64,000 nt of DNA, taken from the sequence record PP534475.1. One strand, 5' to 3'. The notes beneath the pieces were generated by a model. The model made no database searches. It saw only the letters and a list, made by a program, of their open reading frames with translations, and was not told where the DNA came from. Both the position numbers and the translations under genes were made by a program. Positions 222-41,144 of the stretch are shown here, in pieces; positions within the stretch are counted from its first letter, which is position 1, and each line of letters starts with the position of its first letter. Origin of the DNA: Escherichia phage YJin-2024a.

Positions 222-497
222 TTAGTCGAACTTAGGAGCGACAGTTAAGGAGAACGGAAGTTCGAAAACTTCTTCGCCCTCATCACTAACAGTAATTACA
301 CGACCTTTAAGTTCAGACATTGAAATATCAATATCAGCTTTTGCATCTGGAGCCATGCCAGCTTCAACACATTTAGCTTTAATTTCCGGCAGAAGTTCTA
401 CATCGTAGAAATAAAGCCATTCAATCTCACCTTCCCAGCCTTCCCAGGATTTACAGATTGCACTTTCAATACCAGTTGCTATAACACGATTTTGCAT
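222..497 (-). CDS. hypothetical protein
   Basis: 91-aa ORF downstream of a T5-type early promoter (approx 505-540, minus strand). Confidence 0.45.
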   Translation of the reverse strand: MQNRVIATGIESAICKSWEGWEGEIEWLYFYDVELLPEIKAKCVEAGMAPDAKADIDISMSELKGRVITVSDEGEEVFELPFSLTVAPKFD

Positions 498-587
498 TCG
501 TTAACTCCTTCATCAATTTATATAACTATTATACCAGAAATTTAAAGCAAAAGGCAAGTACATTTTTAAAAATTCTGTTTGGAGGAG

Positions 588-794
588 CTAAACTCCAGAT
601 TCTTCAGCCAAGTCTAGACTAATAAGAGATATAGCCATAATTGCCGCTCCATGTTCTTTTTCTCCAGTCTCTTTAGCTAGAGTTATAATGTCAAGAAATT
701 GCTTATGAAAATCTGCAACCTCTTGAGTTATACCTGCCTCAGCAATCATACCTTTAAGCATGAAACGTTGTGCGGTAATTTCAGGATTAGCCAT
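588..794 (-). CDS. hypothetical protein
   Basis: 68-aa ORF; start overlaps stop of upstream small ORF (ATGGCTAA). Confidence 0.45.
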   Translation of the reverse strand: MANPEITAQRFMLKGMIAEAGITQEVADFHKQFLDIITLAKETGEKEHGAAIMAISLISLDLAEESGV

Positions 795-2681: not shown

Positions 2682-3674
2682 ATGACAGAAGAAGTAGCTA
2701 AGAGTCCTGAGACCGTCGCTAGCGTTGCAGCAGAACTGCACCGTCACGAGGAATCAGATAAGAAAAAGTGGGAGAAGGTCAGAGCCTACGAAGAGAAACA
2801 TCGTGAACACGATGAAGATGATGAAGAAGATGACGATGATGAGTATTGTCATAAATATGGAAAACGTAAAATGCAAGAACCAGTAAACGTATTCACTAGT
2901 GGCTTCCCTGGCCTAATGGGTGGTTACCCAGCAAACGCAGGTGCTTTCGGTGGTGAAGGTATGGGACTATTCGGAGCTATCCTAATCGGTGCTCTATTAA
3001 CAGGCGGATTCGGTGGTTTCGGTGGATTCGGTGGACGTGGTGTAGTTGGTGAAGGTACCGCAGTTGATGCAGTACTTCAGAACCAAGATACCGCTAGTAT
3101 TCTAGCAGCTATTAACACTACTCGTACAGAGGCTAACCAGGGTACTGGAGCTGTTTTAAGCGCAGTTAATAATGGTTTTAGCCAGACATCCCAAAACCAG
3201 AGCCGTGATACTCAGTCTGTACTAACTACGATCTATGGTACAGGTGCTAATCTGTCTAATCAGATCTGCCAGGAAACTCGCAACGTTATTCAGGGTCAGT
3301 TCGATCTTTCTCGCCAGATTGATCAAGCTTTCGCAGCTAATCAGATAGCTCGTGCACAAGATAAGTTTGATTCTGCACAGATCGCTTTCCAGCAGACTTT
3401 ACAAACTAATAACCAGTTTGCCGCTGTTCAGGCTCAGATGTGTGCTAACCAGAACTCTCTGGAACGTCAGATCGCTGAATGTTGCTGTGAACTTCAGACT
3501 GCGATTGCTGGTGTAACTACTGCGCGTATCCAGGATGAGTTAGACGCGTGTCGTCTACGTGAAGCAATCGCTGCGGGTAGCGGTGCTAACGGTCAGGTAA
3601 TTAATCAAATCGCTTTAAGTCTTGGTGCTATCACTCAGACTCTGGCTGGTCTGCAGGCTAAACTGCCGGCTTAA
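2682..3674 (+). CDS. membrane protein: acidic N-terminus, glycine-zipper segment, Gln/Asn/Thr-rich Cys-containing C-terminus
   Basis: Start moved to ATG 2682 because of the RBS; GGFGGFGGFGG hydrophobic Gly-zipper; DEDDEEDDDDE acidic tract; no recognisable family. Confidence 0.6.
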   Translation: MTEEVAKSPETVASVAAELHRHEESDKKKWEKVRAYEEKHREHDEDDEEDDDDEYCHKYGKRKMQEPVNVFTSGFPGLMGGYPANAGAFGGEGMGLFGAILIGALLTGGFGGFGGFGGRGVVGEGTAVDAVLQNQDTASILAAINTTRTEANQGTGAVLSAVNNGFSQTSQNQSRDTQSVLTTIYGTGANLSNQICQETRNVIQGQFDLSRQIDQAFAANQIARAQDKFDSAQIAFQQTLQTNNQFAAVQAQMCANQNSLERQIAECCCELQTAIAGVTTARIQDELDACRLREAIAAGSGANGQVINQIALSLGAITQTLAGLQAKLPA

Positions 3675-4432: not shown

Positions 4433-5380
4433 TTATTTATTACGCATATCCATAATCATTTGGCCATCGTAACCAGTTCCCACTACTGTTTGCGGTACAC
4501 CACCTTGGTATTTCTGAGCACGAATCATTTCGACTTCCAGTTGTTTCCAACGAATCATCTCAGGAGTAATGGTACGTTGCAGTGCGGCGTTAGCTTCAGC
4601 TTCTTTCTTAGCTGCATACAGTTTAGCATCTGCATCACGTTCGTTAGCAATAGCTTGGTTATTACGAGCTTCGCGATCTGCTTCTGCTTGTTTAACCTTC
4701 TGCTGTGCTTCTTGTTCAACACGAGCCAACTCAGCTTTTGCAGCATTAACTTGCTCTTCACGAACTTTGGTATTCTGTACCTGTTCCATGATTACTGGAG
4801 GCAGAGTAATATCCTGAAGGAATACCTGCTTAACTGTGTAACCATATGGGCGTGCATACTCTTCAACTTCTTGTTGAATTGCAGTTTGCAATTGAGCCTG
4901 AATTTTAGCATCAAACAAATCTTGTGCTTTAGGTACAGACTTACCAAACTCACGAATAGTAGACAGTAATTTTTCAGTTACATACTTGTCTAGCGCCTGA
5001 TCCTGAGTACCTGCGTTAATGCGGTTAATCGGTGCCTTAGAACCATCAAACTGCAACATAACAGTCAGGTCAACAGTGGATTTAAACTTATCCTGACTAG
5101 GAACCTGAAGTTTATCTAATTTTAGAGCAATATCTTTAGTACTAAAAGTATCGAAAGAAGCAAAAGGATTTACAATATGAAAGCCGGGTAATACTGGGCT
5201 AGGGTCAACTTTACCCAGGAAAGTCTGGGTTTTAACAGTACCGTCTTGAACAACAGTATAGGAGTTAAGGGCCAGAACTAAACCTACCAAACCAACTGCA
5301 GCACCAATACCCCAACGTTTGATATTACGCATCAATTTTTGCTCATAAGTCAGTTCTTTAGTGTTTTTAGTAGCAAACAT
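4433..5380 (-). CDS. SPFH/band-7 (prohibitin/HflKC-like) membrane protein
   Basis: N-terminal TM helix, SPFH-like core, long Ala/Glu/Gln-rich coiled coil (AKAELARVEQEAQQKVKQAEADREARNNQ). Confidence 0.65.
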   Translation of the reverse strand: MFATKNTKELTYEQKLMRNIKRWGIGAAVGLVGLVLALNSYTVVQDGTVKTQTFLGKVDPSPVLPGFHIVNPFASFDTFSTKDIALKLDKLQVPSQDKFKSTVDLTVMLQFDGSKAPINRINAGTQDQALDKYVTEKLLSTIREFGKSVPKAQDLFDAKIQAQLQTAIQQEVEEYARPYGYTVKQVFLQDITLPPVIMEQVQNTKVREEQVNAAKAELARVEQEAQQKVKQAEADREARNNQAIANERDADAKLYAAKKEAEANAALQRTITPEMIRWKQLEVEMIRAQKYQGGVPQTVVGTGYDGQMIMDMRNK

Positions 5381-5414
5381 ATATTTCCTTTGTTTTAGTT
5401 ACAGTTAATAAAAT

Positions 5415-5489
5415 TGGCCGAGGTGACAGGATTCGAACCTGCATAAAGGAATTTAGAAGACTCCTGCCTCTCCCTTAGACTACACCCCG
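5415..5489 (-). tRNA. tRNA-Arg (anticodon TCT)
   Basis: Acceptor CGGGGTG/CACCTCG, D-arm GTCT-AAGGGAG-AGGC, anticodon stem GGAGT/ATTCC with loop CTTCTAA, T-arm GCAGG-TTCGAAT-CCTGT, CCA. Confidence 0.7.
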
Positions 5490-6286
5490 TTTAAGTATTT
5501 TTAAGAACTCTCGTAAAAACTCTTAAAAATACAGACGATACCGGGAGAGTCATAAGTCTCACTCATTAAGTATTTCAAGACAAAATACAGTAACGTCTAT
5601 TATTTTCCAGTTTAAGTCAGGGTGACTTAGTGGTTATGTCCTGCGGTATATTGAGGACTCGGTTAGGCTTGGGGTCATGACTTCCCACCTTTTGCTGCTA
5701 CTCAACAGGAGTTATCGCGAATTACCTGTGCTATTGTGCACCATTAGTGACATCTCTCATGTCAGCATTTCCCACTTTGTGGATAGCTTGAAAAACTACT
5801 CCGATATGGAGAAAGAACTTCACTATCCTAGAATACCTTCTAAAGTTCTTCTTTAGCCTGGACATAGTTAAATCGTAATAAAACTATTCAGCAGACTGGT
5901 TGGTTAGTCTGGAACCAACTACCGCGTGGTTTAGGCAGTGCGCAACTAACCTCGGAAGCTTTTACATTAAAAGCACCAGTTATCCAGTTCTTACCGACCG
6001 TAGGACTCGAACCTACATCTTCCACCAGTTACGGCTTGATAATACCAATTATACTAGGACGGCAGTGTTACTACATAAGTGATTTCCACACCCCACTATT
6101 TATAAATTAGAGAAGAGTTTAGGGGAGAGGTTTCAGACGCCTCATTTTACACGTTCTAGCCACTAACCGGGATTGCCGCCCCCTGTGTACTAGTTTTACA
6201 ACTAACCCACCGACTCTATTCAATGCGCTCCGGTTGGGATTCTGCACTCAGCGTAATCGGCTCGCTGTTCTCTAATTTATGAATAT

Positions 6287-6315
6287 ATTATACAGAATTT
6301 AAAGGCATTTAGCAA
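6287..6315 (-). promoter_or_regulatory. T5-type early promoter (TTGCTA-17-TATAAT) firing into the ORF-free region 5490-6280
   Basis: Minus-strand consensus hexamers with AT-rich upstream element; -35 lies 9 nt after the stop of the 6324-6767 gene. Confidence 0.6.
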
Positions 6316-6323
6316 ATAAATTT

Positions 6324-6767
6324 TTAATTAAATTCGCCAGCAATCTGAGCAGCAGTACCGCCATCATAACGCCCAGGAAATTCTTCCTTAATCGCTTTCA
6401 TCAGCATACCCTTTGTAATTCCAGGGTTTAGCTTAACTAATTCTGCAAAGTATTTACGAATCTCAGTATCAGATAACTGAGGAGGCAGATACTCCTGCAA
6501 CCACTTATTTAGAATGTATTCATACTGAGCGGACTGCAAGCTATAACTATCAAGATCTTGACCATGAAGTTTAGCTTTCATCTGGTTAATGCTTTTTAGT
6601 TGCGCTTTGAGATAAGACACAAATTGTTCAGAAGTGATGAAATCTTTATCAATACGCTGAAGATCCCCGATTATGGTCTGATAGCTTTTAGCGACTTCTT
6701 TATCAGAACCATTAAACTTAGAATCCTGCAAAGCTCTACGCAAAACATCTAAAATATTCTCTTCCAT
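6324..6767 (-). CDS. YqeY/GatB-C-terminal-domain-like protein
   Basis: C-terminal GMLMKAIKEEFPGRYDGGTAAQIAGEF resembles the GatB/YqeY motif. Confidence 0.5.
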   Translation of the reverse strand: MEENILDVLRRALQDSKFNGSDKEVAKSYQTIIGDLQRIDKDFITSEQFVSYLKAQLKSINQMKAKLHGQDLDSYSLQSAQYEYILNKWLQEYLPPQLSDTEIRKYFAELVKLNPGITKGMLMKAIKEEFPGRYDGGTAAQIAGEFN

Positions 6768-6937
6768 TATTTCATTCCTAACGCTTGGTTAAAAGATTGT
6801 TCTGTCATAACTGCTGAGACTTTGGCGAAATCAAACTTTTTAGGGTTTGTAGTGATTTCAGCAACGTTAGAAGTTTTAACAGTTTTCGTAGTACGAATAC
6901 CGCGAGTGTTAACACCAATAATTACAACTGATTTCAT
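6767..6937 (-). CDS. small hypothetical protein (56 aa)
   Basis: ORF below track threshold; stop overlaps next start (TAATG); promoter at 6969-6997 upstream. Confidence 0.35.
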   Translation of the reverse strand: MKSVVIIGVNTRGIRTTKTVKTSNVAEITTNPKKFDFAKVSAVMTEQSFNQALGMK

Positions 6938-6968
6938 ATTTCGCTTCCTCTCATTAATTTATGGAAGT

Positions 6969-6997
6969 ATTATACGGAAATTTAAATATTTAAGCAA
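6969..6997 (-). promoter_or_regulatory. T5-type early promoter TTGCTT-17-TATAAT
   Basis: Consensus hexamers on the minus strand with AT-rich upstream region. Confidence 0.6.
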
Positions 6998-7005
6998 GTA
7001 AATTT

Positions 7006-7473
7006 TTAAGTTTTAGTGACAACAGGTTTATAGAATGTATGTCCCTTAATCTTAGTTGTTTTCTTAAATTTCTTTGTCCAGTAAGGTTTATCTTTACCAC
7101 TATGGAAGTATAGTGCTCCATATGTAGGATCTTGTGGTAAATCAACGTAGTATATCACTCTAGCTAAATTCTTAGCGGTTTGCCAAGCCTCATCAGTTTT
7201 ATCAACTTTTGGTCTCTTAGATACCCAAGAGAACTGGTTAGACTGATATACTACTTTACAGTAGGAATCTGGGAATTTACCGGAGTTTACACGGTTTTTA
7301 GTAACATGTGCAATCGCCGTCATTCCCTTTATGCCCTCACCACGACTCTCGAAATAGATATTTTTAGCAATGCAATCTATTTCTTTTGCATCGTGCGATG
7401 CCTGACTACTAAAGCTGAAGGTAAGGGCAGCTACTAAAAGCAAAGCTGCCTTCATTCTTTTTACTCCTGCCAA
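7006..7473 (-). CDS. secreted SleB-family cell-wall hydrolase
   Basis: Signal peptide MKAALLLVAALTFSFSSQA; NIYFESRGEGIKGMTAIAHVTKNRV matches the SleB hydrolase motif. Confidence 0.6.
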   Translation of the reverse strand: MAGVKRMKAALLLVAALTFSFSSQASHDAKEIDCIAKNIYFESRGEGIKGMTAIAHVTKNRVNSGKFPDSYCKVVYQSNQFSWVSKRPKVDKTDEAWQTAKNLARVIYYVDLPQDPTYGALYFHSGKDKPYWTKKFKKTTKIKGHTFYKPVVTKT

Positions 7474-7778
7474 TCATATTCAACACGATTGGGATTTTCT
7501 TTATACCCTAAGTCAAGCAAATCATTACGCATAGTTTGCTTAGCTACTGGGTTCGAGGTTACTAGTACCACTTTCTTTGGTCTCTGCCCAAATTCTAAGA
7601 GTAAACGAAGAATTTGATAACCTTCCATACCATCTACAGCTAAGTCATTATCCATATAAATGAAGTGGCCTGTGGTATCAGTTTTATTCAGAAACTCTAC
7701 AGCGGCTTCTGGGGTTCGAATGATAATGTCCATTCCGTGAAGATTACGCACATCATCAATCAAAATATGAAAAGTCAT
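7461..7778 (-). CDS. CheY-like receiver (REC)/flavodoxin-fold protein
   Basis: HILIDD, YMDNDLAVDGMEGYQIL and VVLVTSN align to REC Asp-pair, phospho-acceptor and Thr positions; overlaps hydrolase gene by 13 nt. Confidence 0.45.
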   Translation of the reverse strand: MTFHILIDDVRNLHGMDIIIRTPEAAVEFLNKTDTTGHFIYMDNDLAVDGMEGYQILRLLLEFGQRPKKVVLVTSNPVAKQTMRNDLLDLGYKENPNRVEYDWQE

Positions 7779-8220
7779 AATAGCCTCGTTTCATCAATTT
7801 AAAAATATATTATACATATAATTTAGTAGATTAGCAAATACATTTTTAAATTGTGAAACTAGTAAACCGATAAACAGCCTAGAGGCGCCACAGGCCATAT
7901 CTTATGAGCCATGTACCTTTGATCTAGGGTTTGAATCATCAACGAATACTTTGCATCTTTTAGCTTTAGAAGTTTAGAAGTTTGAGTTCTTTAAACTTTT
8001 CAGCTTTCATACTTAAATGTTGATCTTTGAAGTTGTGTCGGTAATATCAACGACGCTTTGTTCTTACGTGTCAGCTTAAAAGGCTGGTGTAATAAACATA
8101 ATCTCCAATAGATTATACTTTATAGTATGGTCAGCGGTCTTATTTAACCTCGTATTTCAACCGCTGCTGCGAGGTAAGATGCTTGGGCTTTCGTCTACCG
8201 ATTTACTAGCTTTTAAATTA

Positions 8221-8859
8221 TTACTCTACTTCAATGAAGGTAGAGGCGTTAGACTCGGACAGAACAAAGTCAACATTTGTTGCAAAGTCCTGGTATTCCT
8301 CGTCATGTTGCTTAATCAGCTTCTCCAGTTCCAGCGGATCAATCAAGAATGGAGTATTCTTGAGTTCCAGCAGGTTGAGCTGCATTTTAACTTCATCTTC
8401 GGAAGTTTTCTTATCGCGGGTAGCCATGCTATCCTGCAAACGCTCATATTTAGCGTCAAACTGTGCTTTCTGCGTATTAAACTTAACCGTAGCGGCATGG
8501 AACTGCTTACGCATGTTAGCCAGCAGCTGAGCTTTAAGCTCCATAGAACGCTTAGCTTCAATTGCTTCCGCAACAGTCATCTTACGAGAACCAATCTCAA
8601 CGATTGTTTCTGCATTGCTCTTAATCAGAGCAGATTTGATACTATCACGCTTAGACATCATATCCAGCAGAGACTGGAAATCAGTCTTAATACGAGTAGA
8701 CAGATCGGCTACTTCGATTGCAGCGCCAACTACAACCTGGTTTTTATCCTTACCTTCACCAACAGCGATCAGAAGCTGCTGTTCAGTAGCTTTACGGATT
8801 TTAGCTTCCAGAGATTTGATAGTTGCCAGAGCACGAGTTTTAGAAATACGAGTAGTCAT
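8221..8859 (-). CDS. hypothetical coiled-coil protein
   Basis: 212-aa ORF, no recognisable motif. Confidence 0.5.
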   Translation of the reverse strand: MTTRISKTRALATIKSLEAKIRKATEQQLLIAVGEGKDKNQVVVGAAIEVADLSTRIKTDFQSLLDMMSKRDSIKSALIKSNAETIVEIGSRKMTVAEAIEAKRSMELKAQLLANMRKQFHAATVKFNTQKAQFDAKYERLQDSMATRDKKTSEDEVKMQLNLLELKNTPFLIDPLELEKLIKQHDEEYQDFATNVDFVLSESNASTFIEVE

Positions 8860-29084: not shown

Positions 29085-29789
29085 ATGGCTGGTTCTCGTA
29101 GAAAGAAACATATCCATGAAATCCCGGATGAAGTCTTTAAAAAGGTTATAGAGCATCTGGAGAACGGTGGTACTAAGAAAGCAGCTTGTGAAATGCTAGG
29201 CGTATCATCCAATCCAACTATGGAAAGGATGATTGAAGAATGGCAAGATCGCCAAATTCAAGTTGCCGAAATGAAGAAAAAGAAACGCGGCACACTTATT
29301 GAAGGCATTGAGTTAGCTAACGTTATTGAGCAGTATTTATCTGGGGATTCTTTTGAAGAAATTGCCGATCGTAATTATCGCTCTGTAGCAATGGTTAAAT
29401 CTGTTCTGGAACGATATGGTGCTTTGCTTCGTTTGAACGATATTGTAGATCCATTGAATCCTCCAATTATTCCTGATGATGCTGTAGCAGAAGAATTTGC
29501 AGTTGGTGAGCTTGTTTGGGTTCCTGGATACCAGTGTATTGGTGAAATCAAAAAAGCAATGGATAATCCTGTTGGTTGCTACCGTGTATGGCTTCTATCA
29601 GAAGGCAAACAACAGAACGTTCATTATATGAATTACGAGCTGGCTTCTGTTAAACACCTGGAAAAGCTAGGGGTTGATGTAAAATCTCTAGGGTACAAGT
29701 GGACTCGTGAAGAAATTATTACGTTGATTAACGAAGCTGTTAAGGCTGCCCTGAAACTTGATAAAGAAAAAGGAAAACGCCGTGAGTAA
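29085..29789 (+). CDS. HTH-domain DNA-binding protein
   Basis: N-terminal GGTKKAACEMLGVS helix-turn-helix; Lys-rich C-terminus. Confidence 0.45.
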   Translation: MAGSRRKKHIHEIPDEVFKKVIEHLENGGTKKAACEMLGVSSNPTMERMIEEWQDRQIQVAEMKKKKRGTLIEGIELANVIEQYLSGDSFEEIADRNYRSVAMVKSVLERYGALLRLNDIVDPLNPPIIPDDAVAEEFAVGELVWVPGYQCIGEIKKAMDNPVGCYRVWLLSEGKQQNVHYMNYELASVKHLEKLGVDVKSLGYKWTREEIITLINEAVKAALKLDKEKGKRRE

Positions 29790-30012
29790 GCTAACAGATT
29801 TGCTCAAAGATGGAGATGTAAAATATCTCCAGCGGGATAGCTGGGAAAATAATAAATGCTTTACAGTAGTTTTAGAATTTAACGTAGAGCAGGGTACAGT
29901 GACCGAACATGTGTGGGAGAACGGTATGGAATCCCCACTTATCCGTCAAGTAAACCTTACCCTAGACGAGGCTCTGGCTGACGATTGGGAGATTGTTGAA
30001 CTAGATGTGTAG
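29782..30012 (+). CDS. small acidic hypothetical protein
   Basis: Probable GTG start overlapping the upstream stop (GTGAGTAA); track start is TTG 29758. Confidence 0.35.
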   Translation: MSKLTDLLKDGDVKYLQRDSWENNKCFTVVLEFNVEQGTVTEHVWENGMESPLIRQVNLTLDEALADDWEIVELDV

Positions 30013-30118
30013 CAATTACCGAAAAATTTCAGTTGCTTAATCCTATAATTCTTGATATAATATTCTCATAGTTTGAAAGAACTATTCTGTTTAATTCTTA
30101 ATTAAGGAAATATAAAAT

Positions 30119-30529
30119 ATGACTACTCCAACTCAGTGGACTGATGAACTGTTCGAAAAAATGTCTTCCGAATACGTTGCTCGTATGGAGCAATTCCCCG
30201 AGGATGAACGTCCGGGTGTTAGCATGGAAATTGTTAGCGAAATTGCCCAGGAAAATGGTGTAACTCCGAACGGTTTTCGTATGAAGCTGACTAAAGCAGG
30301 TTTGTATATCAAGAAAGCTGCTGGCTCCGCTTCTAAATCTAGCGCATCTACTGGAGAAAAAGCTTCTGGTGGTTCTCGTACCTCCAAAGCCCAGGCTCAT
30401 GCTGATCTTCGTTCAGCATTCTCTGATGCTGGCCTAGCACCAGATTTTCTGGATGATGCAATTATCGACAAACTGACCGGTAAAGCAGCCGCTCATCTGG
30501 CAGAAGCAATCCGAGCTATCACTAAGTAA
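30119..30529 (+). CDS. hypothetical protein
   Basis: 136-aa ORF behind a TATAAT promoter near 30055. Confidence 0.45.
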   Translation: MTTPTQWTDELFEKMSSEYVARMEQFPEDERPGVSMEIVSEIAQENGVTPNGFRMKLTKAGLYIKKAAGSASKSSASTGEKASGGSRTSKAQAHADLRSAFSDAGLAPDFLDDAIIDKLTGKAAAHLAEAIRAITK

Positions 30530-30565
30530 TTTTTAGATAAATCCACCAACAAAAGGAATACAGTT

Positions 30566-30862
30566 ATGACCAAAGCTGAAATTATCGCACAATGTGAAAA
30601 ATTTGGTGAGTTTTATCTTCATTACGAGAAACTTCGTCAGAAAGGAACTACGTACCTTCAGGGTACGATGGAATTTGATCCAGCCCAAGATAAATATCTG
30701 GCTGAGCGTATTAAACGTGAACGTATTCGTAAAGCGAAAGATGATGAGATCCTTGTCTTCTCTCGTACTAATGATAGCTTCCGTTTTATTCCTGTCGAGA
30801 AAGTCCGTCGTGTGACTAGCCTCCAATCAGAGTTAGATCGTGCTTCTCCAGTAGGCCGATAA
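30566..30862 (+). CDS. hypothetical protein
   Basis: 98-aa ORF followed by a terminator. Confidence 0.45.
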   Translation: MTKAEIIAQCEKFGEFYLHYEKLRQKGTTYLQGTMEFDPAQDKYLAERIKRERIRKAKDDEILVFSRTNDSFRFIPVEKVRRVTSLQSELDRASPVGR

Positions 30863-30872
30863 GAAACCAATT

Positions 30873-30894
30873 AGCCCCTATATGGGGCTTTTTG
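30873..30894 (+). terminator. intrinsic terminator
   Basis: AGCCCC-TATAT-GGGGCT followed by TTTTTG. Confidence 0.65.
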
Positions 30895-30912
30895 TGTATT
30901 TGGGATATGTAA

Positions 30913-31221
30913 ATGAGCGAACAGGTAAATCAAAACTATGAAGGACACGTTGATGACCAGTCCATCATACTTTGGGAGAAGGAGGGAGAACAAGTAAGAT
31001 TAACAGTATCTGAATTTCGTGGGAATCTATACATGGGTATTCGTTACTGGCTTCTTGATATTAATGATGAATGGTTTCCAACGAAATCTGGCTTCTCTTT
31101 TCCTTACACCCTAGAAACAACATCACAGCTTTTCTATGCGTTTACACAGATTCTTAGCGAATCTGAGGTTTTACATGAAGTACAGAAACGAGCTGAAGAA
31201 CTCAAAGCCAAGAATGCCTAG
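30913..31221 (+). CDS. PC4/YdbC-like ssDNA-binding protein
   Basis: RLTVSEFRGNLYMGIRYW...WFPTKSGFSFP matches the PC4 fold motif. Confidence 0.55.
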   Translation: MSEQVNQNYEGHVDDQSIILWEKEGEQVRLTVSEFRGNLYMGIRYWLLDINDEWFPTKSGFSFPYTLETTSQLFYAFTQILSESEVLHEVQKRAEELKAKNA

Positions 31222-31239
31222 TTCTTGGCTTTTTCTTTA
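31207..31239 (+). terminator. intrinsic terminator
   Basis: GCCAAGAA/TTCTTGGC hairpin containing the stop codon, then TTTTTCTTTAT. Confidence 0.65.
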
Positions 31240-31248
31240 TAAATGTAT

Positions 31249-31277
31249 TTGCTTTCAACTCAGTTTTGTTATATAAT
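31249..31277 (+). promoter_or_regulatory. T5-type early promoter TTGCTT-17-TATAAT
   Basis: Consensus hexamers upstream of the ligase N-terminal gene. Confidence 0.65.
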
Positions 31278-31308
31278 ATTTATATAAATTGATGAGAGAT
31301 ATAAATAA

Positions 31309-32280
31309 ATGACTAATGTAAAAGAATTTATTAAACGCTGTCAAGAAGCATATTATCAAGGCATGTCTTTAATCTCTGATGAGGAATATGATCGTCTTAT
31401 TAAAAGATTCCCACTAGAGGAAGAGATCGGGCCTAAGGGCGATATTCCACATCTATATCGTATGTATTCTTTACAGAAAGTTTATTATAATCGTGGAGAT
31501 AAGCCCCCATTTAACCCATTAGGTCAGGTAGAAACTGATAAGTTAGATGGTTGTGCGATTTCTCTGTTATATATTAATGGCGAATTTGTTCAAGCACTAA
31601 CTCGTGGTAATGGCATTCTAGGGAATGATGTCACAAGCAACGTAAGACTGCTGAACATCCCTAAAAAGATTTCCCAAAAAGTACCTACTCAAATCACTGG
31701 TGAAGTTCTAATTACAAAAGAAGTAGAAAATAAACGTAACTTTGCCTCTGGTGCTATTAACCTCAAAGATAGTGATGATTTCGTACAACGTATCGGAGAA
31801 GGTGGTTTAATCTTCGTCGCATATGGTATCCAGTGTTCTGCTGAATCTGTAGGTATTACAGAAACGTATTTAAAAGATATGCTTTGGCTAGAGAATGAGA
31901 ACTTCTTAACAGTTGTTAATGTGCGTTCCTTCTTTAAATGGATTCCGACGGATGGTAAAGTTGTTCGTATTAATGACAACAACAAATTCTTCCGAGAAGG
32001 CTGGACTAATAAATTCCCTCGTGGAGCATTCGCTATTAAAGAGGATGAAGAAGGCGAGATTACAACTCTTACTAAAGTTGAATGGCAGGTAGGGGCTTCT
32101 GGTAAAGTAACTCCAGTTGGTTATTTTGAACCGGTAATTATTGATGATGCTACAATTGTTAAAGCGACTCTTAATAACGTTGATTATATTAACTCTCTTG
32201 ATCTAGAGATCGGTTGCCAGATTCGAGTGATTCGTGCTGGTGGTGTAATCCCGTGCATAGTAGAGCGAGTATACGATTAA
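31309..32280 (+). CDS. NAD-dependent DNA ligase, N-terminal adenylation/OB part
   Basis: KxDG active-site motif ETDKLDGCAI; ends where the LigA zinc-finger region would start. Confidence 0.75.
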   Translation: MTNVKEFIKRCQEAYYQGMSLISDEEYDRLIKRFPLEEEIGPKGDIPHLYRMYSLQKVYYNRGDKPPFNPLGQVETDKLDGCAISLLYINGEFVQALTRGNGILGNDVTSNVRLLNIPKKISQKVPTQITGEVLITKEVENKRNFASGAINLKDSDDFVQRIGEGGLIFVAYGIQCSAESVGITETYLKDMLWLENENFLTVVNVRSFFKWIPTDGKVVRINDNNKFFREGWTNKFPRGAFAIKEDEEGEITTLTKVEWQVGASGKVTPVGYFEPVIIDDATIVKATLNNVDYINSLDLEIGCQIRVIRAGGVIPCIVERVYD

Positions 32281-32330
32281 TACATAACCCTTTGCTACCC
32301 ATCTACCATATCGGAATTATAAAGTGGTTA

Positions 32331-32359
32331 TTGACATTTTCGCCGCTTAGGTATATACT
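32331..32359 (+). promoter_or_regulatory. promoter TTGACA-17-TATACT inside the ligase gap
   Basis: Shares the 13-mer TTGACATTTTCGC with the promoter at 2591; only an 8-codon mini-ORF follows. Confidence 0.5.
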
Positions 32360-32423
32360 ATTATCATTCAGTTGAGGGATAGAAAGTTATGGCGAGGGTA
32401 AGCAAAGTTAGTTAAAATTGTGG

Positions 32424-32452
32424 TTGCTAAATGCTTAAATACTTGCTATAAT
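32424..32452 (+). promoter_or_regulatory. T5-type early promoter TTGCTA-17-TATAAT
   Basis: Followed by TATAAATTGATAAGGAAG leader and ATG 32483. Confidence 0.65.
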
Positions 32453-32482
32453 ATTTATATAAATTGATAAGGAAGAAATTTG

Positions 32483-33253
32483 ATGAAAATCGAAATTCCA
32501 ACACAATGTCCCTCTTGTGGTTCTAAGCTAGATCTTGTCAACGGACAATTATTCTGTCGGAATAAGTCCAACTGTCCAGCGCAATCAAGTAAGTTAATTG
32601 AGAACTTCTGTACAAAAATGAAGTTAAAGGGCTTTGGCCCAAAAACTATTGAGAAGCTGGAGCTGACGAAGATTTCAGAACTATTTTACCTAACCGAAGA
32701 AGATTTGGTTAGAGCCGTGGGTAGCAAGGTTGCCGCTAAGTTAATTAGCGAATTAAATACTAAAGTTCGCGGAGACATTGACTTTGGTTCAGTTCTCGGT
32801 TCTTTAGGAATCCCTCTAATTGGAGAGGTTGCAGCAAAGAAATTATCCCAAAATTGCACTAGCTTCCACGATGTGAAGGCTGACGGCAAGGCTGGAGAAA
32901 ATTATAAAGCCTGGCTAAATTCCCCACAAGGCAAGGATGTTATCGAACTGCCGTGGAAATTCTCAACTGGTGCTAAAGCTAAAACTGTCGTTACAGATGA
33001 ATTAGTTGCCCAGTCAAACGGAATCGCGGTATGTATTACCGGATCTTTGCAAGATTTTGCAAATAGAACGGATGCAACAAACTATTTAGAAAGTCTAGGG
33101 TATACGGTTAAGAAATCCGTTACTAAAGACGTCAAATACCTAATCTGTGAGGATGAATCAAAACGTTCTTCCTCATCTTATAAGAAAGCCGAAACGAATG
33201 GGATAGAAATCCTGTCGATTAAAGAACTATTGGAGAAAAATAATAATGTCTAA
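32483..33253 (+). CDS. NAD-dependent DNA ligase, C-terminal Zn-finger/HhH/BRCT part
   Basis: CPSCGSKLDLVNGQLFCRNKSNCPAQ is the LigA zinc-finger; start taken at ATG 32483. Confidence 0.75.
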   Translation: MKIEIPTQCPSCGSKLDLVNGQLFCRNKSNCPAQSSKLIENFCTKMKLKGFGPKTIEKLELTKISELFYLTEEDLVRAVGSKVAAKLISELNTKVRGDIDFGSVLGSLGIPLIGEVAAKKLSQNCTSFHDVKADGKAGENYKAWLNSPQGKDVIELPWKFSTGAKAKTVVTDELVAQSNGIAVCITGSLQDFANRTDATNYLESLGYTVKKSVTKDVKYLICEDESKRSSSSYKKAETNGIEILSIKELLEKNNNV

Positions 33254-34013
33254 ACTGAACTGGAACGTAGAAGGTGTAACCGAGTCTCTGAAAGCAAAAG
33301 CCACTGCTCTGGGTGTTGCTGTAATCTCTCAAGAACAAGTAGCTGCTATTGCTGCTGAACTGGCTACTGAAACTGGCAAAGATGTTACTGCTCGCTCTGT
33401 TGGCTCTAAACTGCGTAAAGAAGGTTTTGAAGTACAGAAAGCTAACGAAGTACAGAAATCCCCGTGGACTCCTGAGCAGGAAGCTGAACTGGTTGATTTC
33501 CTGAACGCTCATGCTGGTCAGTATACCTATGCTGAAATCGCTGCTGCTGTAGCTGGTGGTCAGTTCGGCGCTAAGCAGGTACAGGGTAAGATTCTGAGCC
33601 TGGAAATGACCGCTTCTGTTAAGCCAACTGAAAAAGCTGCTGCTGTTCGTTCCTTCACTCCGGATGAAGAAACTGATTTTGTTAATCAGGTTGTTGCTGG
33701 TGCTACTATTGAAGCTATCGCTGCTCACTTCGGTCGTAATATCAAGCAGATCCGTGGTAAAGCTCTGAGCCTGCTTCGTGAAGGTCGTATCGCTGCTATG
33801 CCGGTACAGGAAACTTCAAGTGCTAAAACTCGTGAAGATCTGTTAGAAGGTCTGGATCTGGTTAACATGACTGTTGCTGAGATCGCTGAGAAAACTGGTA
33901 AGTCTGAGCGCGGTGTTAAATCTATGCTGTCTCGTCGTGGTCTGGTTGCTAAGGACTATGATGGTGCCGCTAAGCGTGCTAAACTGGATGCAAAAGCTGC
34001 GGCTGCTGAATAA
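33246..34013 (+). CDS. abundant DNA-binding protein with three HTH-like repeats
   Basis: Three similar segments (YAEIAAAV..AKQVQGKILSLE / IEAIAAHFGRNIKQIRGKALSL / VAEIAEKTGKSERGVKSML); codon usage of a highly expressed gene. Confidence 0.45.
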   Translation: MSKLNWNVEGVTESLKAKATALGVAVISQEQVAAIAAELATETGKDVTARSVGSKLRKEGFEVQKANEVQKSPWTPEQEAELVDFLNAHAGQYTYAEIAAAVAGGQFGAKQVQGKILSLEMTASVKPTEKAAAVRSFTPDEETDFVNQVVAGATIEAIAAHFGRNIKQIRGKALSLLREGRIAAMPVQETSSAKTREDLLEGLDLVNMTVAEIAEKTGKSERGVKSMLSRRGLVAKDYDGAAKRAKLDAKAAAAE

Positions 34014-34030
34014 TCTGGTAAATTAAACCT

Positions 34031-34065
34031 AAGGGGAGGGGGCTATGCTCCTTCCCCTTTTTGCA
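34031..34065 (+). terminator. intrinsic terminator
   Basis: AAGGGGAGGGG...CTCCTTCCCCTT hairpin followed by TTTTGCATTT. Confidence 0.7.
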
Positions 34066-34095
34066 TTTAGAAGGCACGAAAGCGTGCAAAGGAGA

Positions 34096-35568
34096 ATGAC
34101 CTTGTTTAACGTGCAAGCTGTAGTGTTGAAGATGCTTCTAGCTTCTGAACAGAAGCAAATAGCATTGGAAACATTCTCAAAACTGCATAAAGATCATTTT
34201 AATGACGCTTTCTCCTCAATTTACCAAGCCGTCCAGAATTATTATAAAAAATATAACACAATGCCGTCCATTGACGCACTTATGCTTGAAGCTAATAGGA
34301 ACGCCCGCCTTTCTCAAGCTCTAGTCGTCTTAGCTAACACTCAAATTCCAGAAGTGAGCATGGAACAGGCACTTGAAGTCCTAGAAGCCGAATATACACA
34401 GGATTTATTCCTGAAACTTCTAGAAACAGACGTGCTTCAAGATTTAACAATGCTGGATCAGGGAGAAATTCTCAACCGAGTTGCCTCCCTTCACTTAAAA
34501 TTAGAAGAGAAAGTAACGAATACTGGAAAAGTATTCAACGCAGATAACATGCGTATTTTCCAGAGAGAAGAAGATACCAAACTGAACTTAATCGCTCTTG
34601 GTATTTGTAATGAGTTCGACGCTCAAATTGGTTTAGCTCGCACAGAAACGTTACTGCTTGGTGGTTGGCGTGGTACTGGTAAATCCATTATCTGTTCAAA
34701 CATACAGGTTCAGCAATATTTGAATGGAGATATTGCTCCATACTTCTCAATTGAGATGAAAGAACATGAAGTATTTAGACGTAATCTAGCCATGTTAGCA
34801 GGTGTATCAGCACTAGCAATGCGTAATAATACTCTAGAAGGTGCAGCTCTGTTGAGATTAGCCAGAACTAGAGCTAGAATGTTTAATGGTGGTGAAGAGC
34901 TTTTCGATAGCTTTGTTAAACAGTACACAATGGCTAAGATGAGTGATTTCTACGATATGGAGAGTAAGCTAATAGAAGGGTATGAGCTACATACTCCTAT
35001 GATTATTGTTTATGACCCTGAGCTGTCTATTACAACAGTTGACGTAGAACTAAATAAATTAGTTGCTAGATATGGTGATAAAGTTACAGTAGCTTTACTG
35101 GACTATATTAACCAAACCCGACTTCCAGACTCTAAAACCATTGATATGTATGACTGGAAAGAACAGATGGTTGTTAGCTCGTCTTTCAAATCTATCTGCC
35201 AGAAACATAACGTGGCTGGTGTAGCTCCTTACCAGATAGATCAAGATGGTAGAACACGTATGTCAAAGGGGATTCTTGATTCCGCTGACATGGCTGCTAA
35301 TCTTAATGCTGCAAAAGCTGATAATGGTCAAGGTGCTATTATGTTTGACTTCGTTAAGACTCGTTCTTCTGATAGCGTGAAGTTTATGCCTAAAATGAAC
35401 TGGGAAACTCTGCGAATGGATAACACTACCAACCTAGCAATGGAAGATATATCTCAAATGGAAGCTGAGTTCGTTATCCCTATTGAGAAGGATAAGCCGG
35501 CTCAACCTAAACGTGCTAAGAAAGACAAAGCTGAAAATTCAACAGGTGAACAGGCCAGCGATATATGA
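34096..35568 (+). CDS. RecA-fold replicative helicase (DnaB-like)
   Basis: Walker A GGWRGTGKS, Walker B VALLDY; start moved to MTLFNV (RBS AAGGAG) because the track start lies inside the terminator. Confidence 0.65.
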   Translation: MTLFNVQAVVLKMLLASEQKQIALETFSKLHKDHFNDAFSSIYQAVQNYYKKYNTMPSIDALMLEANRNARLSQALVVLANTQIPEVSMEQALEVLEAEYTQDLFLKLLETDVLQDLTMLDQGEILNRVASLHLKLEEKVTNTGKVFNADNMRIFQREEDTKLNLIALGICNEFDAQIGLARTETLLLGGWRGTGKSIICSNIQVQQYLNGDIAPYFSIEMKEHEVFRRNLAMLAGVSALAMRNNTLEGAALLRLARTRARMFNGGEELFDSFVKQYTMAKMSDFYDMESKLIEGYELHTPMIIVYDPELSITTVDVELNKLVARYGDKVTVALLDYINQTRLPDSKTIDMYDWKEQMVVSSSFKSICQKHNVAGVAPYQIDQDGRTRMSKGILDSADMAANLNAAKADNGQGAIMFDFVKTRSSDSVKFMPKMNWETLRMDNTTNLAMEDISQMEAEFVIPIEKDKPAQPKRAKKDKAENSTGEQASDI

Positions 35569-36455
35569 GTAGAATAACAGAACTACTTGATCTGAAAGGC
35601 ATTGAATATAAAGACACAGGTGGGGACATCCTCATCTGTTGTCTCAATCCAGATCATGACGATAAACACCCAAGTTTGCGTATTGATCCTGAAACAGGTA
35701 TTATGCACTGCTTGAGTTGTGGCTTCGGTAAAGGTATACCGAGCATTTACCATTATTTTAATGAGACTCAGTACCGACAGTCCCCAAGACTATCGCAGGT
35801 ACGTAAAAAGATTTCAGAGATTAGGAATGGATCTACGAATCTTGCAATTCCTGAATCTGCTTACCTTTTCGAAGGTGATTTCCGAGGTATAAGTTCTAAG
35901 ACCTTGAAGAAATATTTTGCTTTCCAACACCAAGCAGATTGGGAAGGCAGAATTGTATTCCCAATCACAGATGCTGTTGGACGCAATATCCTATTTTTGG
36001 GTCGTTCTATAAACAGTTCTGCCCCTCCTAAATACTTAGTAAAACCAAAACAAGTTTCACCACCGATTTTTCCTGTACGATATAATACTCCAGTTCTTAT
36101 TCTAGTTGAAGGTATCTTTGATATGCTGAACCTAGAGGATAATGGTATAGACTATGCTTCTTGCTGCTTTGGTACACATCAGTTCACTTCAGATAACATT
36201 GCAGATAAGTTCAGTCCTTATATTATTGCTGGTGTAAAAGTTGTTGTTATCTTACTAGATAATGATGCTTCTGGTAATAAAGCTGCACAAGCATTGGCTA
36301 AGCTAATTCGTACAAAAACGCGTTTAATACCTGTAGTTGCTAACTTTCTCCTGCCTGAAGGCAAAGATCCAGGTGATTTAAACAAAGATGAAATTGATAT
36401 GTTAGCAAAACGTATTGAAATTTTAATTGCTGAATCGCTTAAAGATTTGGTATAA
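35565..36455 (+). CDS. DnaG-type DNA primase
   Basis: CHC2 zinc finger CCLNPDHDDKHPSLRIDPETGIMHCLSCG plus Toprim segment VLILVEG...LLDNDASG. Confidence 0.8.
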   Translation: MSRITELLDLKGIEYKDTGGDILICCLNPDHDDKHPSLRIDPETGIMHCLSCGFGKGIPSIYHYFNETQYRQSPRLSQVRKKISEIRNGSTNLAIPESAYLFEGDFRGISSKTLKKYFAFQHQADWEGRIVFPITDAVGRNILFLGRSINSSAPPKYLVKPKQVSPPIFPVRYNTPVLILVEGIFDMLNLEDNGIDYASCCFGTHQFTSDNIADKFSPYIIAGVKVVVILLDNDASGNKAAQALAKLIRTKTRLIPVVANFLLPEGKDPGDLNKDEIDMLAKRIEILIAESLKDLV

Positions 36456-36517
36456 TATATTGGTAAGTTAGAGAAGAAACACTGAAGTTATACTTACTTA
36501 CCAAGAGGAGATTAAAT

Positions 36518-39575: not shown

Positions 39576-40924
39576 AGGTTGTTATATCTAATAAAGCCTA
39601 TTTCAAGCCCGATGATGAACTTTGGGATTATTGTAGTAAGCAAACCACTTATCACATTGAGACAATGACTAGTAAATACCCTATTATGTATAAGAATAGT
39701 GGTGTTGTTGCTAAAGAGATTAAGTGGATTCCTATCACGCGTCTGGATCTACTAGATGCTAAAGGAGTAAAATACGAATTAGTTGATAAACGCACATTAG
39801 CTCCGGTAGATATACCAAAACCTACGTTCAAGCTGCGCGAAGAAGATCAGCTTCCAATATACGAAGAATGCGATGATACCTGTATTATTAATGGTAAGCC
39901 TGGATTTGGCAAAACTATCCTAGCCCTGGCACTTGCGTATAAATTTGGCCAGAAAACTCTGGTAATTTGTACCAACACATCTATTCGTGAAATGTGGGCG
40001 GCAGAAGTTCGTAAATGGTTTGGGTTTGAACCGGGTATCATAGGTTCTGGGAAATACAATATTGATCCACCAATTGTGGTCAGTAATATTCAAACAGTGA
40101 ATAAACATGCGAATAATCTGTCTAAAGTATTCGGTACTGTTATAGTTGATGAAGTTCACCATTGTGTGGCCACAACTTTCACTAACTTCCTAGAAATATC
40201 ATGTGCTCGCTATAAGATTGGACTATCTGGAACATTAAAACGTAAAGATGGTCTACAAGTTATGTTCAAAGATTTCTTTGGATATAAGATCTTTAGCCCA
40301 CCAGTTAATAATACTGTTGCACCTACAATCCATAGGTACTCCGTACCTGTTGAGTTATCAGGGAACCAAAACGTACCCTGGGCATTACGTGCTAACGATG
40401 TGTATAATCATCCTGAATATCGAGAGACTATTATAAACCTGGCACATTTATACGTGAATATGGGGCATAAAGTACTCATTGTAAGTGATAGAACAGAGTT
40501 AATCCAAACAGTGCTAGAAGCTCTTGCACAGCGTGGTGTTACAACATATGAAATTATAGGGGCAACCCACTTAGATGACCGATTAAAAATTCAGGAAGAT
40601 ATAGCAAAAGGTGGACCTTGTGTACTTGCAGCAGCTCAAAGTATCTTCTCTGAAGGTATTTCTCTTAACGAGTTGTCTTGTTTAATAATGGGGAGTCTCA
40701 TTAATAATGAATCTCTCATCGAACAGCTTGCAGGACGTGTTCAACGTATTGTCAATGGTAAACTCGACCCTATTGTTGTAGATCTAATTATGAAAGGTGG
40801 CACTGGACTAAGACAGGCTTCTGGACGTATGGCAGTATATCGTAACAACGGGTGGAAAACTATTACTATGACTCCGGAGAAAGCAGTTCAATTAGCTAAA
40901 ATTGCATTTGGCAACAGCTCATAA
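39572..40924 (+). CDS. SF2 DNA helicase (T5 D10-like)
   Basis: Walker A GKPGFGKT, DEAH-type VIVDEVHH. Confidence 0.8.
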   Translation: MKVVISNKAYFKPDDELWDYCSKQTTYHIETMTSKYPIMYKNSGVVAKEIKWIPITRLDLLDAKGVKYELVDKRTLAPVDIPKPTFKLREEDQLPIYEECDDTCIINGKPGFGKTILALALAYKFGQKTLVICTNTSIREMWAAEVRKWFGFEPGIIGSGKYNIDPPIVVSNIQTVNKHANNLSKVFGTVIVDEVHHCVATTFTNFLEISCARYKIGLSGTLKRKDGLQVMFKDFFGYKIFSPPVNNTVAPTIHRYSVPVELSGNQNVPWALRANDVYNHPEYRETIINLAHLYVNMGHKVLIVSDRTELIQTVLEALAQRGVTTYEIIGATHLDDRLKIQEDIAKGGPCVLAAAQSIFSEGISLNELSCLIMGSLINNESLIEQLAGRVQRIVNGKLDPIVVDLIMKGGTGLRQASGRMAVYRNNGWKTITMTPEKAVQLAKIAFGNSS

Positions 40925-41144
40925 ATGATGTATAATATATACATAAATTTGAGAGAGAAAGTTTCGGATTGATAAGAAAGTCCGAAGCAGAAAAATAAAA
41001 ATTTTAGTTGCTAAATTCTCTCGAAATCTAGTATAATATATACATAAATTCGAGGAGAAAACAAAAATTAAATTCTTCGATTATGAAAAGCTATACTTAC
41101 TAGCTAGAGGAAATTCCGACCTAATTATTAAGCTATTCAAAAGA

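Follow-up and report, generated by a model that had tools for sequence, protein, structure and literature searches.

Among the described counterparts of the element studied here are the GOLLD and ROOL RNAs, phage-encoded molecules of about 580 to more than 800 nucleotides (nt) that lie by transfer RNA (tRNA) islands and fold into ornate structures with many helices and junctions; in GOLLD, tRNAs are at times embedded in the variable region, and the function of both families is unknown (PMC12286853, PMC5737381). Here, we analyzed positions 5490-6286 of a 64,000-nt stretch of DNA from Escherichia phage YJin-2024a (record PP534475.1), the whole of which is referred to as the window, and compared this region with RNAX, an RNA annotated in the genome of phage T5. 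The T5 record (AY543070) lists positions 40848-41566 as a misc_RNA, rnaX/RNAX, with the note “stable RNA with unknown functions,” behind “promoter P 16-17” and immediately 5' of tRNA-Arg, and the record of phage DT571/2 bears the same rnaX label. The T5 record appears to have carried this note ever since its deposition, about 2004. Neither RNA-seq data nor a paper on RNAX or on T5 non-coding RNAs turned up in our searches. The existence of RNAX is already known from GenBank, and what appear to be undescribed are its architecture, its breadth across the Demerecviridae, a tRNA module that caps one of its helices, and an invariant loop.

The region 5490-6280, on the minus strand, is almost certainly the ortholog of T5 RNAX. 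The window belongs to a Tequintavirus (T5-like phage), and its segment 5300-6500 is 100% identical to Salmonella phage SaI_NFG_5581, likewise to Salmonella phage PQ488695, and 99% identical to many other Tequintavirus genomes. A blastn alignment to T5 positions 40848-41559 spans query positions 168-797 (79% of the region) at 93.1% identity. In both genomes the RNA follows the YqeY-like gene (T5.081 in T5) and an early promoter and directly precedes tRNA-Arg(UCU), and motifs and helices are shared; in the window this set lies downstream of genes for a cell-wall hydrolase, a DUF7616 protein, and the YqeY-like protein. Promoter, non-coding RNA of ~790 nt, and tRNA-Arg(UCU) have a single shared orientation, and the order of RNAX followed by tRNA-Arg recurs in all genera examined with downstream sequence. 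The two copies differ in that the window leader is ~150 nt longer (219 nt between the beginning of the -35 hexamer and the first conserved motif, vs. 72 nt in T5) and holds an extra hairpin missing from T5, and in that the window copy is without an 83-nt insertion found in T5, which duplicates the GUCACCUUGAC-UAAACUGG block. In T5 this insertion (L003 ~3000-3090) is flanked by the duplicated block and contains a long hairpin of its own. The T5 record, for its part, states neither structure nor function. We placed the 5' end of RNAX only approximately, at about 6273-6280, and took its 3' end to be the 5' processing site of tRNA-Arg. The conserved core of the RNA starts at about 6100 of the window, with the motif AUAGUGGGGUGUSGAA, and not at the promoter.

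The initial annotation, made from the sequence of the window, had placed a consensus promoter at 6287-6315 firing into a region without a credible open reading frame (ORF), and both points hold. The hexamers TTGCTA and TATAAT, 17 nt apart at 6315..6287 (10 of 12 consensus matches in a consensus scan), face the ORF-free stretch and are homologous to T5 promoter P 16-17. Within 5490-6286 there are only mechanical ORFs of 42-60 amino acids (aa), and none of the four that lie in the conserved core (at least 44 aa each) is conserved: relatives carry frameshifts or stops, and the two at 5677-5865 are already broken in T5 (85-89% identity) and in Epseptimavirus SE3 (95-99%, with a 1-nt insertion). 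A fifth, 6119-6247, lies in the leader segment absent from T5. Many deposited genomes place short “hypothetical protein” coding sequences, on either strand, over RNAX (e.g., PQ488695, OR896820 CDS0085/0086, and MK630230 CPT_Spivey_115); such calls are probably spurious, given that the ORFs are not conserved.

Comparison across relatives indicates that RNAX is very probably a conserved, modular, structured non-coding RNA, whose fold compensatory substitutions have preserved across six or more genera of the Demerecviridae. The 5' domain is closed by a short helix, P0, of 4 base pairs (bp), which occurs in three fully complementary versions: GUGG:CCAC, ACGG:CCGU in Pectobacterium phage DU_PP_V, and UGGG:CCCA in Proteus phage PM135. 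Within it lies the long helix P1, whose 14 positions take 15 sequence variants in a motif-anchored table, every one of them forming 12 pairs and two mismatches; the mismatches are fixed at positions 5 (C.C) and 10 (G.G), except that DU_PP_V has them at positions 6 (U.U) and 10 (G.G). In this helix 99.7% of cells are paired and 7 of the 12 pairs show compensatory change. Hairpin H2 (95.3% paired) varies as GCUUAU/AUAAGC, GCUUC/GAAGC, and GGUUC/GAACC, and helix P3 appears between conserved flanks as AGGCAG/CUGCC, GCUG/CAGC, GCUA/UAGC, or UGGC/GCCA. Taken over a 32-sequence alignment, the 36 pairs proposed for the 5' domain are 95.6% paired, vs. 33%-38% when their 3' partners are slid by 1-3 columns; 20 of the pairs have changed on both sides, and 0 of 500 shuffles attain the observed values, a statistic that overstates independence because many of the aligned sequences are closely related. 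RNAalifold, run without the proposed structure, recovers P0, P1, the acceptor stem of the module described below, and H2. U.G pairs are frequent on the transcribed strand (for instance, in 16 and 23 sequences at two P1 positions) and would be A.C on the opposite strand; the fold therefore belongs to the RNA. A variable leader, 6280..6103 and mostly missing in T5, precedes the 5' domain and includes a hairpin with a compensatory version, CAGCA/UGCUG.

The covariance model built for the 5' domain detects two sequences outside its training set, Yersinia phage phiR2-01 (130.6 bits, E = 7e-34) and PM135 (70.1 bits, E = 2e-17), and a single full-length copy within the 64-kb window. It rejected all of ~90 environmental matches to a pattern of the P1 core in IMG/VR; the genuine matches in these scans were three, namely, an isolate T5-like genome, a PM135 relative, and PM135 itself. 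Pair probabilities computed between conserved anchor motifs in 23 homologs yielded local hairpins and part of P1 only. A blind scan for covarying columns in one global MAFFT alignment mixed true helices with many false ones, created by swapped, non-homologous domains, and for this reason a domain-by-domain analysis was adopted. Three candidate pairings were dropped: GGGGUG of the 5' motif with CACCC of hairpin j, suggested by the minimum-free-energy fold (DU_PP_V keeps the former and loses the latter); GGUGU with ACACU, where the lineage of L027 has an uncompensated U-to-C change; and a hairpin GUGC/GCAC, which overlaps the better-supported H5.

At the tip of P1 sits the element that the initial annotation had described as a degenerate tRNA at ~5993-6063, possibly one of several pseudo-tRNAs or part of a structured non-coding RNA. 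The Rfam tRNA model (RF00005) matches it at 6063..5992 with 34.2 bits (E = 1e-4; gathering score 29); the anticodon arm is passed over as an insert of 18 nt, and tRNA is the sole family matched in the region by the Infernal/Rfam scan. Inspected by hand, it has the T arm (GUAGG-UUCGAGU-CCUAC), the D loop with GG on a D stem of 3 bp, and the acceptor stem (6 of 7 positions paired, a G1.U72 wobble among them, with a U5.U68 mismatch) that had been reported, and its anticodon stem is indeed unpaired, with AAGCC and GUGGA giving one pair only. The proposal of a structured RNA stands for the whole ~790 nt, which is conserved and covaries, and for the tRNA-like module; exactly one such module is present, not several. 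Covariation across relatives, a check that the initial annotation had proposed, revealed helices kept by compensatory changes, and neither ARAGORN nor Rfam finds an ordinary tRNA inside the region, so the possibility of missed tRNAs falls away (ARAGORN reports five tRNAs in the window, the element at 6063..5992 not among them). The region and its tRNA-like element are not a product of chance, because the whole is conserved in 525 GenBank phage records and covaries.

Two features of the module go beyond what had been noticed: It caps the conserved helix P1 and is not free-standing, and in some relatives a plain hairpin takes its place. It shares with RF00005 tRNAs the acceptor, D, and T arms, U8, G18-G19, and the T loop UUCGAGU, and differs in its unpaired anticodon stem, in position 1:72 (G.U in 15 sequences and G.A in 17), and in that both ends continue into P1. 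Relatives conserve the U5.U68 mismatch, P1 holds both flanks so that neither end is free, and position 72 is followed by AAGA, with no CCA encoded. Pairs of the acceptor, D, and T arms covary among homologs. Homologous modules score from 26.6 bits (FZ41) to 50.2 bits (Erwinia phage KEY, which has a good Pro(UGG) anticodon arm), and that of T5 itself falls below the Rfam threshold. The anticodon arm varies by lineage, being a hairpin with a 6-nt loop in some Epseptimaviruses and unpaired in the window and T5, and in Klebsiella phages the module is longer, at 86 nt. The plain hairpin on the same helix is found in EPS7, in three relatives of EPS7 type from IMG/VR or GenBank, and in PM135. GenBank records label the module inconsistently (tRNA-OTHER, Ser-CGA, Sec, and Pseudo), and the anticodon assigned to it in relatives varies with the caller (Ser-ACT, SeC-TCA, and Pro). 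The module is best read as a captured tRNA, possibly a tRNA-Pro, turned into a peripheral and dispensable structural module.

Beyond a central region of lineage-specific hairpins lies the 3' domain, for which 30 proposed pairs are 84.2% paired, vs. 33%-45% when slid, with 23 pairs changed on both sides; this evidence is weaker than that for the 5' domain, because part of the signal comes from replaced and possibly non-homologous hairpins. The helix that closes this domain is tentative; its fifth pair is A-U in the window and U-A in KEY, and 90% of cells are paired. We rejected CACGGGAUAAC of DU_PP_V as a homolog of GUGGGAAA and did not count DU_PP_V for this helix, because the sequence aligns better with the loop of H5. 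In H5 all five pairs have changed on both sides (CUAGGAAG/CUUCCUAG and CUUAG/CUAAG). Hairpin H6 combines a variable basal stem (AGGCU/AGCCU, AGACU/AGUCU, GUGAC/GUCAC, and CCUAGAC/GUCUAGG) with an invariant loop, AGUCAUGA, and all 56 of the genuine distinct RNAX stretches contain AGTCATGA. The UCAUGA of this loop is self-complementary and occurs once per RNA. The terminal hairpin has the highest sequence conservation across genera, with 90%-100% identity in Klebsiella and Pectobacterium phages.

Distant blastn searches found the region in the 525 GenBank records mentioned above, down to ~70% identity, and its length from the motif AUAGUGGGGUGUSGAA to the terminal hairpin is 548-895 nt across homologs. 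RNAX motifs in the same order occur in Tequintavirus, in Epseptimavirus (including phiR2-01), in Klebsiella phages of the genus Sugarlandvirus, in KEY, and in DU_PP_V (Mccorquodalevirinae). In KEY the 3' part diverges, and neither the GUCACC-type hairpin j nor the AU-rich terminal hairpin was found; in PM135 (Novosibvirus) the 5' domain is present. A tblastn search with the neighboring SPFH/Band_7 protein, aimed at distant Demerecviridae, returned T4-like phages instead. Entire hairpin domains have been swapped between lineages, between conserved blocks, and homing-endonuclease or other ORFs are inserted 5' or 3' of RNAX in some phages.

Insertions and exchanges of RNA domains are concentrated at this locus. 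An HNH_3 homing-endonuclease gene stands between promoter and RNAX in some Epseptimaviruses (L027 1017-1499; L035 1017-1499), and an ORF of ~170 aa without a Pfam match stands between RNAX and tRNA-Arg in L025-L028, L034, and L035; PM135 has an unannotated ORF of ~110 aa at the latter position (L073 ~6957-7290). Two metagenomic variants are recombinant: in L045 239-420 a 5' half of T5 type is fused, within the T loop, to a 3' half of Epseptimavirus type, leaving a mismatch in the T stem, and L049 8485-8680 places a long Klebsiella-type tRNA-like module between T5-type flanks.

How RNAX relates to known families was assessed with Rfam. Neither the search of window positions 4500-7500 at E ≤ 10 nor that of four divergent homologs (KEY, DU_PP_V, FZ41, and 26175I) at E ≤ 1 gave a match to GOLLD or ROOL, and within RNAX these searches gave tRNA matches and sub-threshold noise only. 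Judged by Rfam models, RNAX is not a transfer-messenger RNA (tmRNA), a group I or II intron, RNase P RNA, 6S RNA, GOLLD, or ROOL. Like GOLLD and ROOL, it is phage-encoded, lies beside a tRNA island, exceeds 500 nt, has a multi-helix covarying structure, and has a conserved part alongside poorly conserved parts; unlike them, it occurs in phages of Enterobacterales, in the family Demerecviridae, and its tRNA-like piece caps a conserved helix and does not lie in a disordered linker. The likeness to these families is one of functional analogy only. Bacterial Y RNAs (YrlA), as Chen and colleagues reportedly showed in 2014, also combine a helix with a tRNA-like module. RNAX resembles them in having a tRNA-like element with T and D arms inside a larger RNA, the rest of which forms a helix whose irregularities are conserved, and differs in being several times larger and in topology, as the free ends of YrlA lie in the protein-binding stem. 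On this comparison, the four divergent homologs had no non-tRNA Rfam match at E ≤ 1, and no rsr or rtcB neighbor was seen among the annotated features of the RNAX loci fetched.

The H6 hairpin also has counterparts outside the Demerecviridae. A 14-mer, GGGAGTCATGACCC, has matches in at least 120 IMG/VR contigs; 32 of 119 lie within 400 nt of a tRNA, 14 of 118 are in loci with at least 10 tRNAs, and 37% have extended flanking complementarity, vs. ~15% by chance. The GGG-AGUCAUGA-CCC hairpin is seen in unrelated environmental viral contigs, many of them with large tRNA arrays, and the elements that contain it form two groups. Those of group A (~230 nt) have a covarying stem capped by AGUCAUGA and a helix, GAACUC/GAGUUC, around a degenerate tRNA-like element, combining the same two modules as RNAX. 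Those of group B are tRNA-like RNAs with an acceptor stem and a CCA end, in which an elongated arm with the AGUCAUGA loop takes the position of the anticodon arm. Besides weak tRNA matches, no Rfam family was matched by either group. A likeness between AUAACC of these elements and AUAACCAC of RNAX was discarded as coincidental, because the motif there belongs to a T-loop analogue. One of these contigs, L072, also carries a permuted two-piece alpha-type tmRNA at 5169-5574 on the minus strand (Rfam alpha_tmRNA, 111.9 bits; tag peptide by ARAGORN). The occurrence of the hairpin in these settings suggests a functional role for H6 as a module similar to an anticodon arm (U-CAU-purine-A, G-C closing pairs, and one extra loop nucleotide). 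It is possible, and at present doubtful, that RNAX represents, in enterobacterial phages, a broader and so far undescribed class of RNAs of tRNA arrays, made of a helix with a degenerate tRNA body and a stem with a CAU-like AGUCAUGA loop, which in T5-like phages would have grown to an ornate RNA of 550-900 nt, similar in kind to GOLLD and ROOL. Such an RNA might manipulate translation initiation or disarm tRNA-directed host nucleases, either as a multivalent mimic of an initiator or Met-type tRNA or as a particle that pairs with itself.

As a compromise between the layers of the case, we lean toward the overall reading of the region as a ~790-nt ortholog of T5 RNAX with a conserved fold and a role as a stable, tRNA-mimicking scaffold or decoy; the functional part of it, an early action in trans, is a guess of low confidence. 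By analogy with standard RNA metabolism in E. coli, cleavage by RNase P at tRNA-Arg, 5 nt beyond the terminal hairpin, would release the 3' end of RNAX, and the terminal hairpin, together with the leader hairpin where present, would shield the RNA from exonucleases and RNase E and so make it stable. Early in infection, RNAX may then act in trans as a structured scaffold mimicking parts of tRNA, namely, a tRNA body capping P1 and a hairpin that, with its CAU and its G-C closing pairs, is similar to an anticodon arm. It may bind or titrate tRNA-directed or translation-initiation factors, or defense nucleases that target tRNA, as an accessory of the phage tRNA set, and the UCAUGA of its invariant loop may pair two copies of the RNA. 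Genes of the T5 tRNA region counter tRNA-cleaving defenses (PMC11464382, PMC11555353). The viable T5 deletions 29191-32442 and 30661-38625 stop before rnaX (40848-41566), if the coordinate systems agree (PMC11464382).

Several observations weigh against this reading, in addition to the kinship of the aligned sequences and the replaced hairpins of the 3' domain. The helix closing the 3' domain and P3 have few independent supporting changes, and single-sequence folding gave unremarkable z-scores (-1.3 and -1.4). The order of modules is altered in PM135, where a AGUCAUGA-type, H6-like loop stands upstream of the 5' domain. Mimicry of the tRNA body is not a universal core function, because the module is absent from EPS7-type and PM135-type RNAs. 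As for the anticodon-arm likeness, the loop of H6 has 8 nt (9 in the window) vs. 7 in an anticodon loop, and there are just two near-invariant closing G-C pairs. Finally, the description of T5 RNAX as stable has the GenBank note as its single source.

The alternatives can be judged by the same evidence. RNAX might be an ornate RNA particle that assembles by itself, with a function analogous to that of GOLLD and ROOL, and forms homo-oligomers via its invariant self-complementary loop, with the tRNA-like piece peripheral or cargo. Its context is that of these families (a phage, a tRNA island, 550-900 nt, a conserved core with a variable periphery, and a tRNA or tRNA-like insert at a variable position), the loop AGUCAUGA with its palindrome UCAUGA is invariant and has no conserved intramolecular partner, and assemblies of GOLLD, ROOL, and OLE are held by kissing loops. 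We nonetheless regard this analogy as an unlikely account, since one palindromic loop would give a dimer at most and no cage, the same hairpin occurs in tRNA-like RNAs of 100-230 nt that are too small for cages, the Rfam searches described above gave no match to GOLLD or ROOL, and the very invariance of the loop precludes a covariation test of intermolecular pairing. That RNAX is merely a cis-acting structured leader, guiding or timing the processing of tRNA-Arg and the tRNA operon (e.g., as an entry site for RNase P, E, or III) with no function in trans, would explain why it precedes tRNA-Arg(UCU) in every genus examined with downstream sequence and why its terminal hairpin in the window stops 5 nt short of the tRNA. 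This explanation appears quite improbable: One or two ORFs (~110-170 aa) split RNAX from tRNA-Arg in Epseptimavirus, KEY, phiR2-01, and PM135 with the RNA retained, covarying structure over ~600 nt, along with many unpaired motifs that do not vary, far exceeds the known needs of a tRNA leader, and the T5 annotators recorded RNAX as a stable RNA in its own right.

Two further explanations were weighed. It is hardly credible that the region is a graveyard of decayed tRNA genes, with a pseudo-tRNA and neutral spacer conserved through close kinship only. One tRNA-like element does have a degenerate anticodon arm, its homolog in KEY still resembles tRNA-Pro(UGG), and the region is rich in indels and homing-endonuclease insertions; yet the tRNA-like part is only 72 of ~790 nt with no other Rfam tRNA signal around it, helices that are not part of it covary across genera at ~70% identity or less, and invariant motifs persist where their flanks cannot be aligned, so that the covariation data already contradict this idea. 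Very improbable, too, is the view that the conserved hairpins act as DNA (an origin, a protein-binding palindrome, or a homing-endonuclease target) or that the region encodes small proteins. For this speak a DNA palindrome, GTCATGAC, the HNH endonuclease genes inserted beside the region, and the short hypothetical coding sequences of several GenBank records, whereas the frequent U.G wobbles make the helices strand-specific, the small ORFs are not conserved, and the GenBank calls vary between records.

Other features of the neighborhood deserve mention. The gene just upstream, 6324-6767 on the minus strand, is labeled “tRNA amidotransferase” or “recombination related exonuclease” in GenBank, and its product has a sub-threshold Pfam match to YqeY (GatB tail-like, tRNA-binding; 25.4 bits vs. 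a cut-off of 27). The product could be a partner of the tRNA-like RNA, but Sugarlandvirus phages carry RNAX without the YqeY-like gene. A second promoter with identical TTGCTA-17-TATAAT hexamers lies 1.5 kb upstream, at 7809-7837 on the minus strand, and precedes ORF 7461-7778, which corresponds to T5.084, and the cell-wall hydrolase gene; a promoter block of ~55 nt recurs several times, at ~80% identity, in every T5-like locus. In PM135 (L073 7450-7765) and a relative (L146 ~360-680, minus strand), another consensus promoter follows right after tRNA-Arg and drives ~300 nt of ORF-free sequence before tRNA-Tyr, which may be a further non-coding RNA. Coordinates of the features are collected in Table 1.

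Table 1. Features of the RNAX locus in the window, and environmental contigs with related hairpins; r is 6103 minus the window position and numbers the 5' domain.
Feature	Position	Strand	Basis
Sigma-70-type early promoter, TTGCTA / 17 nt / TATAAT	6287..6315	-	Consensus scan and T5 annotation
Whole RNAX transcript unit	5490..6280	-	Homology to T5 and DT571/2 rnaX
Leader hairpin near 5' end, CAGCG-loop-CGCUG	6249..6267	-	Same hairpin in KEY, phiR2-01, DU_PP_V/PM135
P0 5' strand, GUGG (r7-10), within invariant AUAGUGGGGUGUSGAA	6093..6096	-	Pairs with 5926-5929
P1 5' strand, AUCACUUAUGUAGU (r20-33)	6070..6083	-	Covariation; RNAalifold
Junction strands beside module, AACACU and AGA	6069..6064 and 5991..5989	-	
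tRNA-shaped module at tip of P1 (r40-111)	5992..6063	-	Rfam tRNA, 34.2 bits
P1 3' strand, ACUGGAUAACUGGU (r115-128)	5975..5988	-	Covariation; RNAalifold
Hairpin H2, GCUUUU-AAUGU-AAAAGC	5958..5974	-	Covariation, 95.3% paired
Helix P3, encloses inserted domain in other lineages	5934..5953	-	Judged by eye, no tool count
P0 3' strand, CCAC in AAACCACG (r174-177), closes 5' domain	5926..5929	-	Complementary versions
Central variable region, lineage-specific hairpins exchanged between lineages	5777..5925	-	Alignments
3'-domain closing helix, 5' strand, AGUGG in GUGGGAAA (tentative)	5772..5776	-	Pairs with 5629-5633
Hairpin H3, UGACAU-GAGAG-AUGUCA	5748..5764	-	Compensatory UGGCAU/AUGCCA, UCACG/CGUGA
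Hairpin H5, ACAGG/CCUGU, conserved loop AAUUCGCGAUAAC	5705..5729	-	Covariation
Hairpin H6: covarying basal stem, internal loop, G-C apical pairs, loop AGUCAUGA at 5683..5675	5665..5691	-	
Hairpin H7, GUCCU-loop-AGGAC	5638..5658	-	5/5 pairs changed on both sides
3'-domain closing helix, 3' strand, CCACU in AUAACCAC	5629..5633	-	Partner assignment inferred
Hairpin j, AAGUCA-CCC-UGACUU, then conserved AAACUGGAA	5614..5628	-	Stem kept, loop differs in DU_PP_V
AU-rich 3'-terminal hairpin	5495..5532	-	12 stacked pairs, 5 compensatory
tRNA-Arg(UCU), co-oriented, begins 5 nt past terminal hairpin	5415..5489	-	ARAGORN; Rfam, 49.3 bits
AGUCAUGA-hairpin element, contig L057	1216-1347	-	
AGUCAUGA-hairpin element, contig L072	~8300-8440	-	
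AGUCAUGA-hairpin elements, contigs L189/L260/L299, L270, L301			
Further AGUCAUGA-hairpin elements, contigs L188, L200, L216, L236, L275, L283, L290, L293			

Phage T5 is among the classical models of phage biology, and recent work has located counter-defense tRNAs in its tRNA region. RNAX is without an Rfam family, and the spurious “hypothetical protein” annotations placed over it could be corrected. RNAX has the same genomic setting as GOLLD and ROOL, whose role has long been a puzzle; were RNAX to serve a related purpose, this puzzle could be approached by experiment in E. coli with T5, the most tractable system available.

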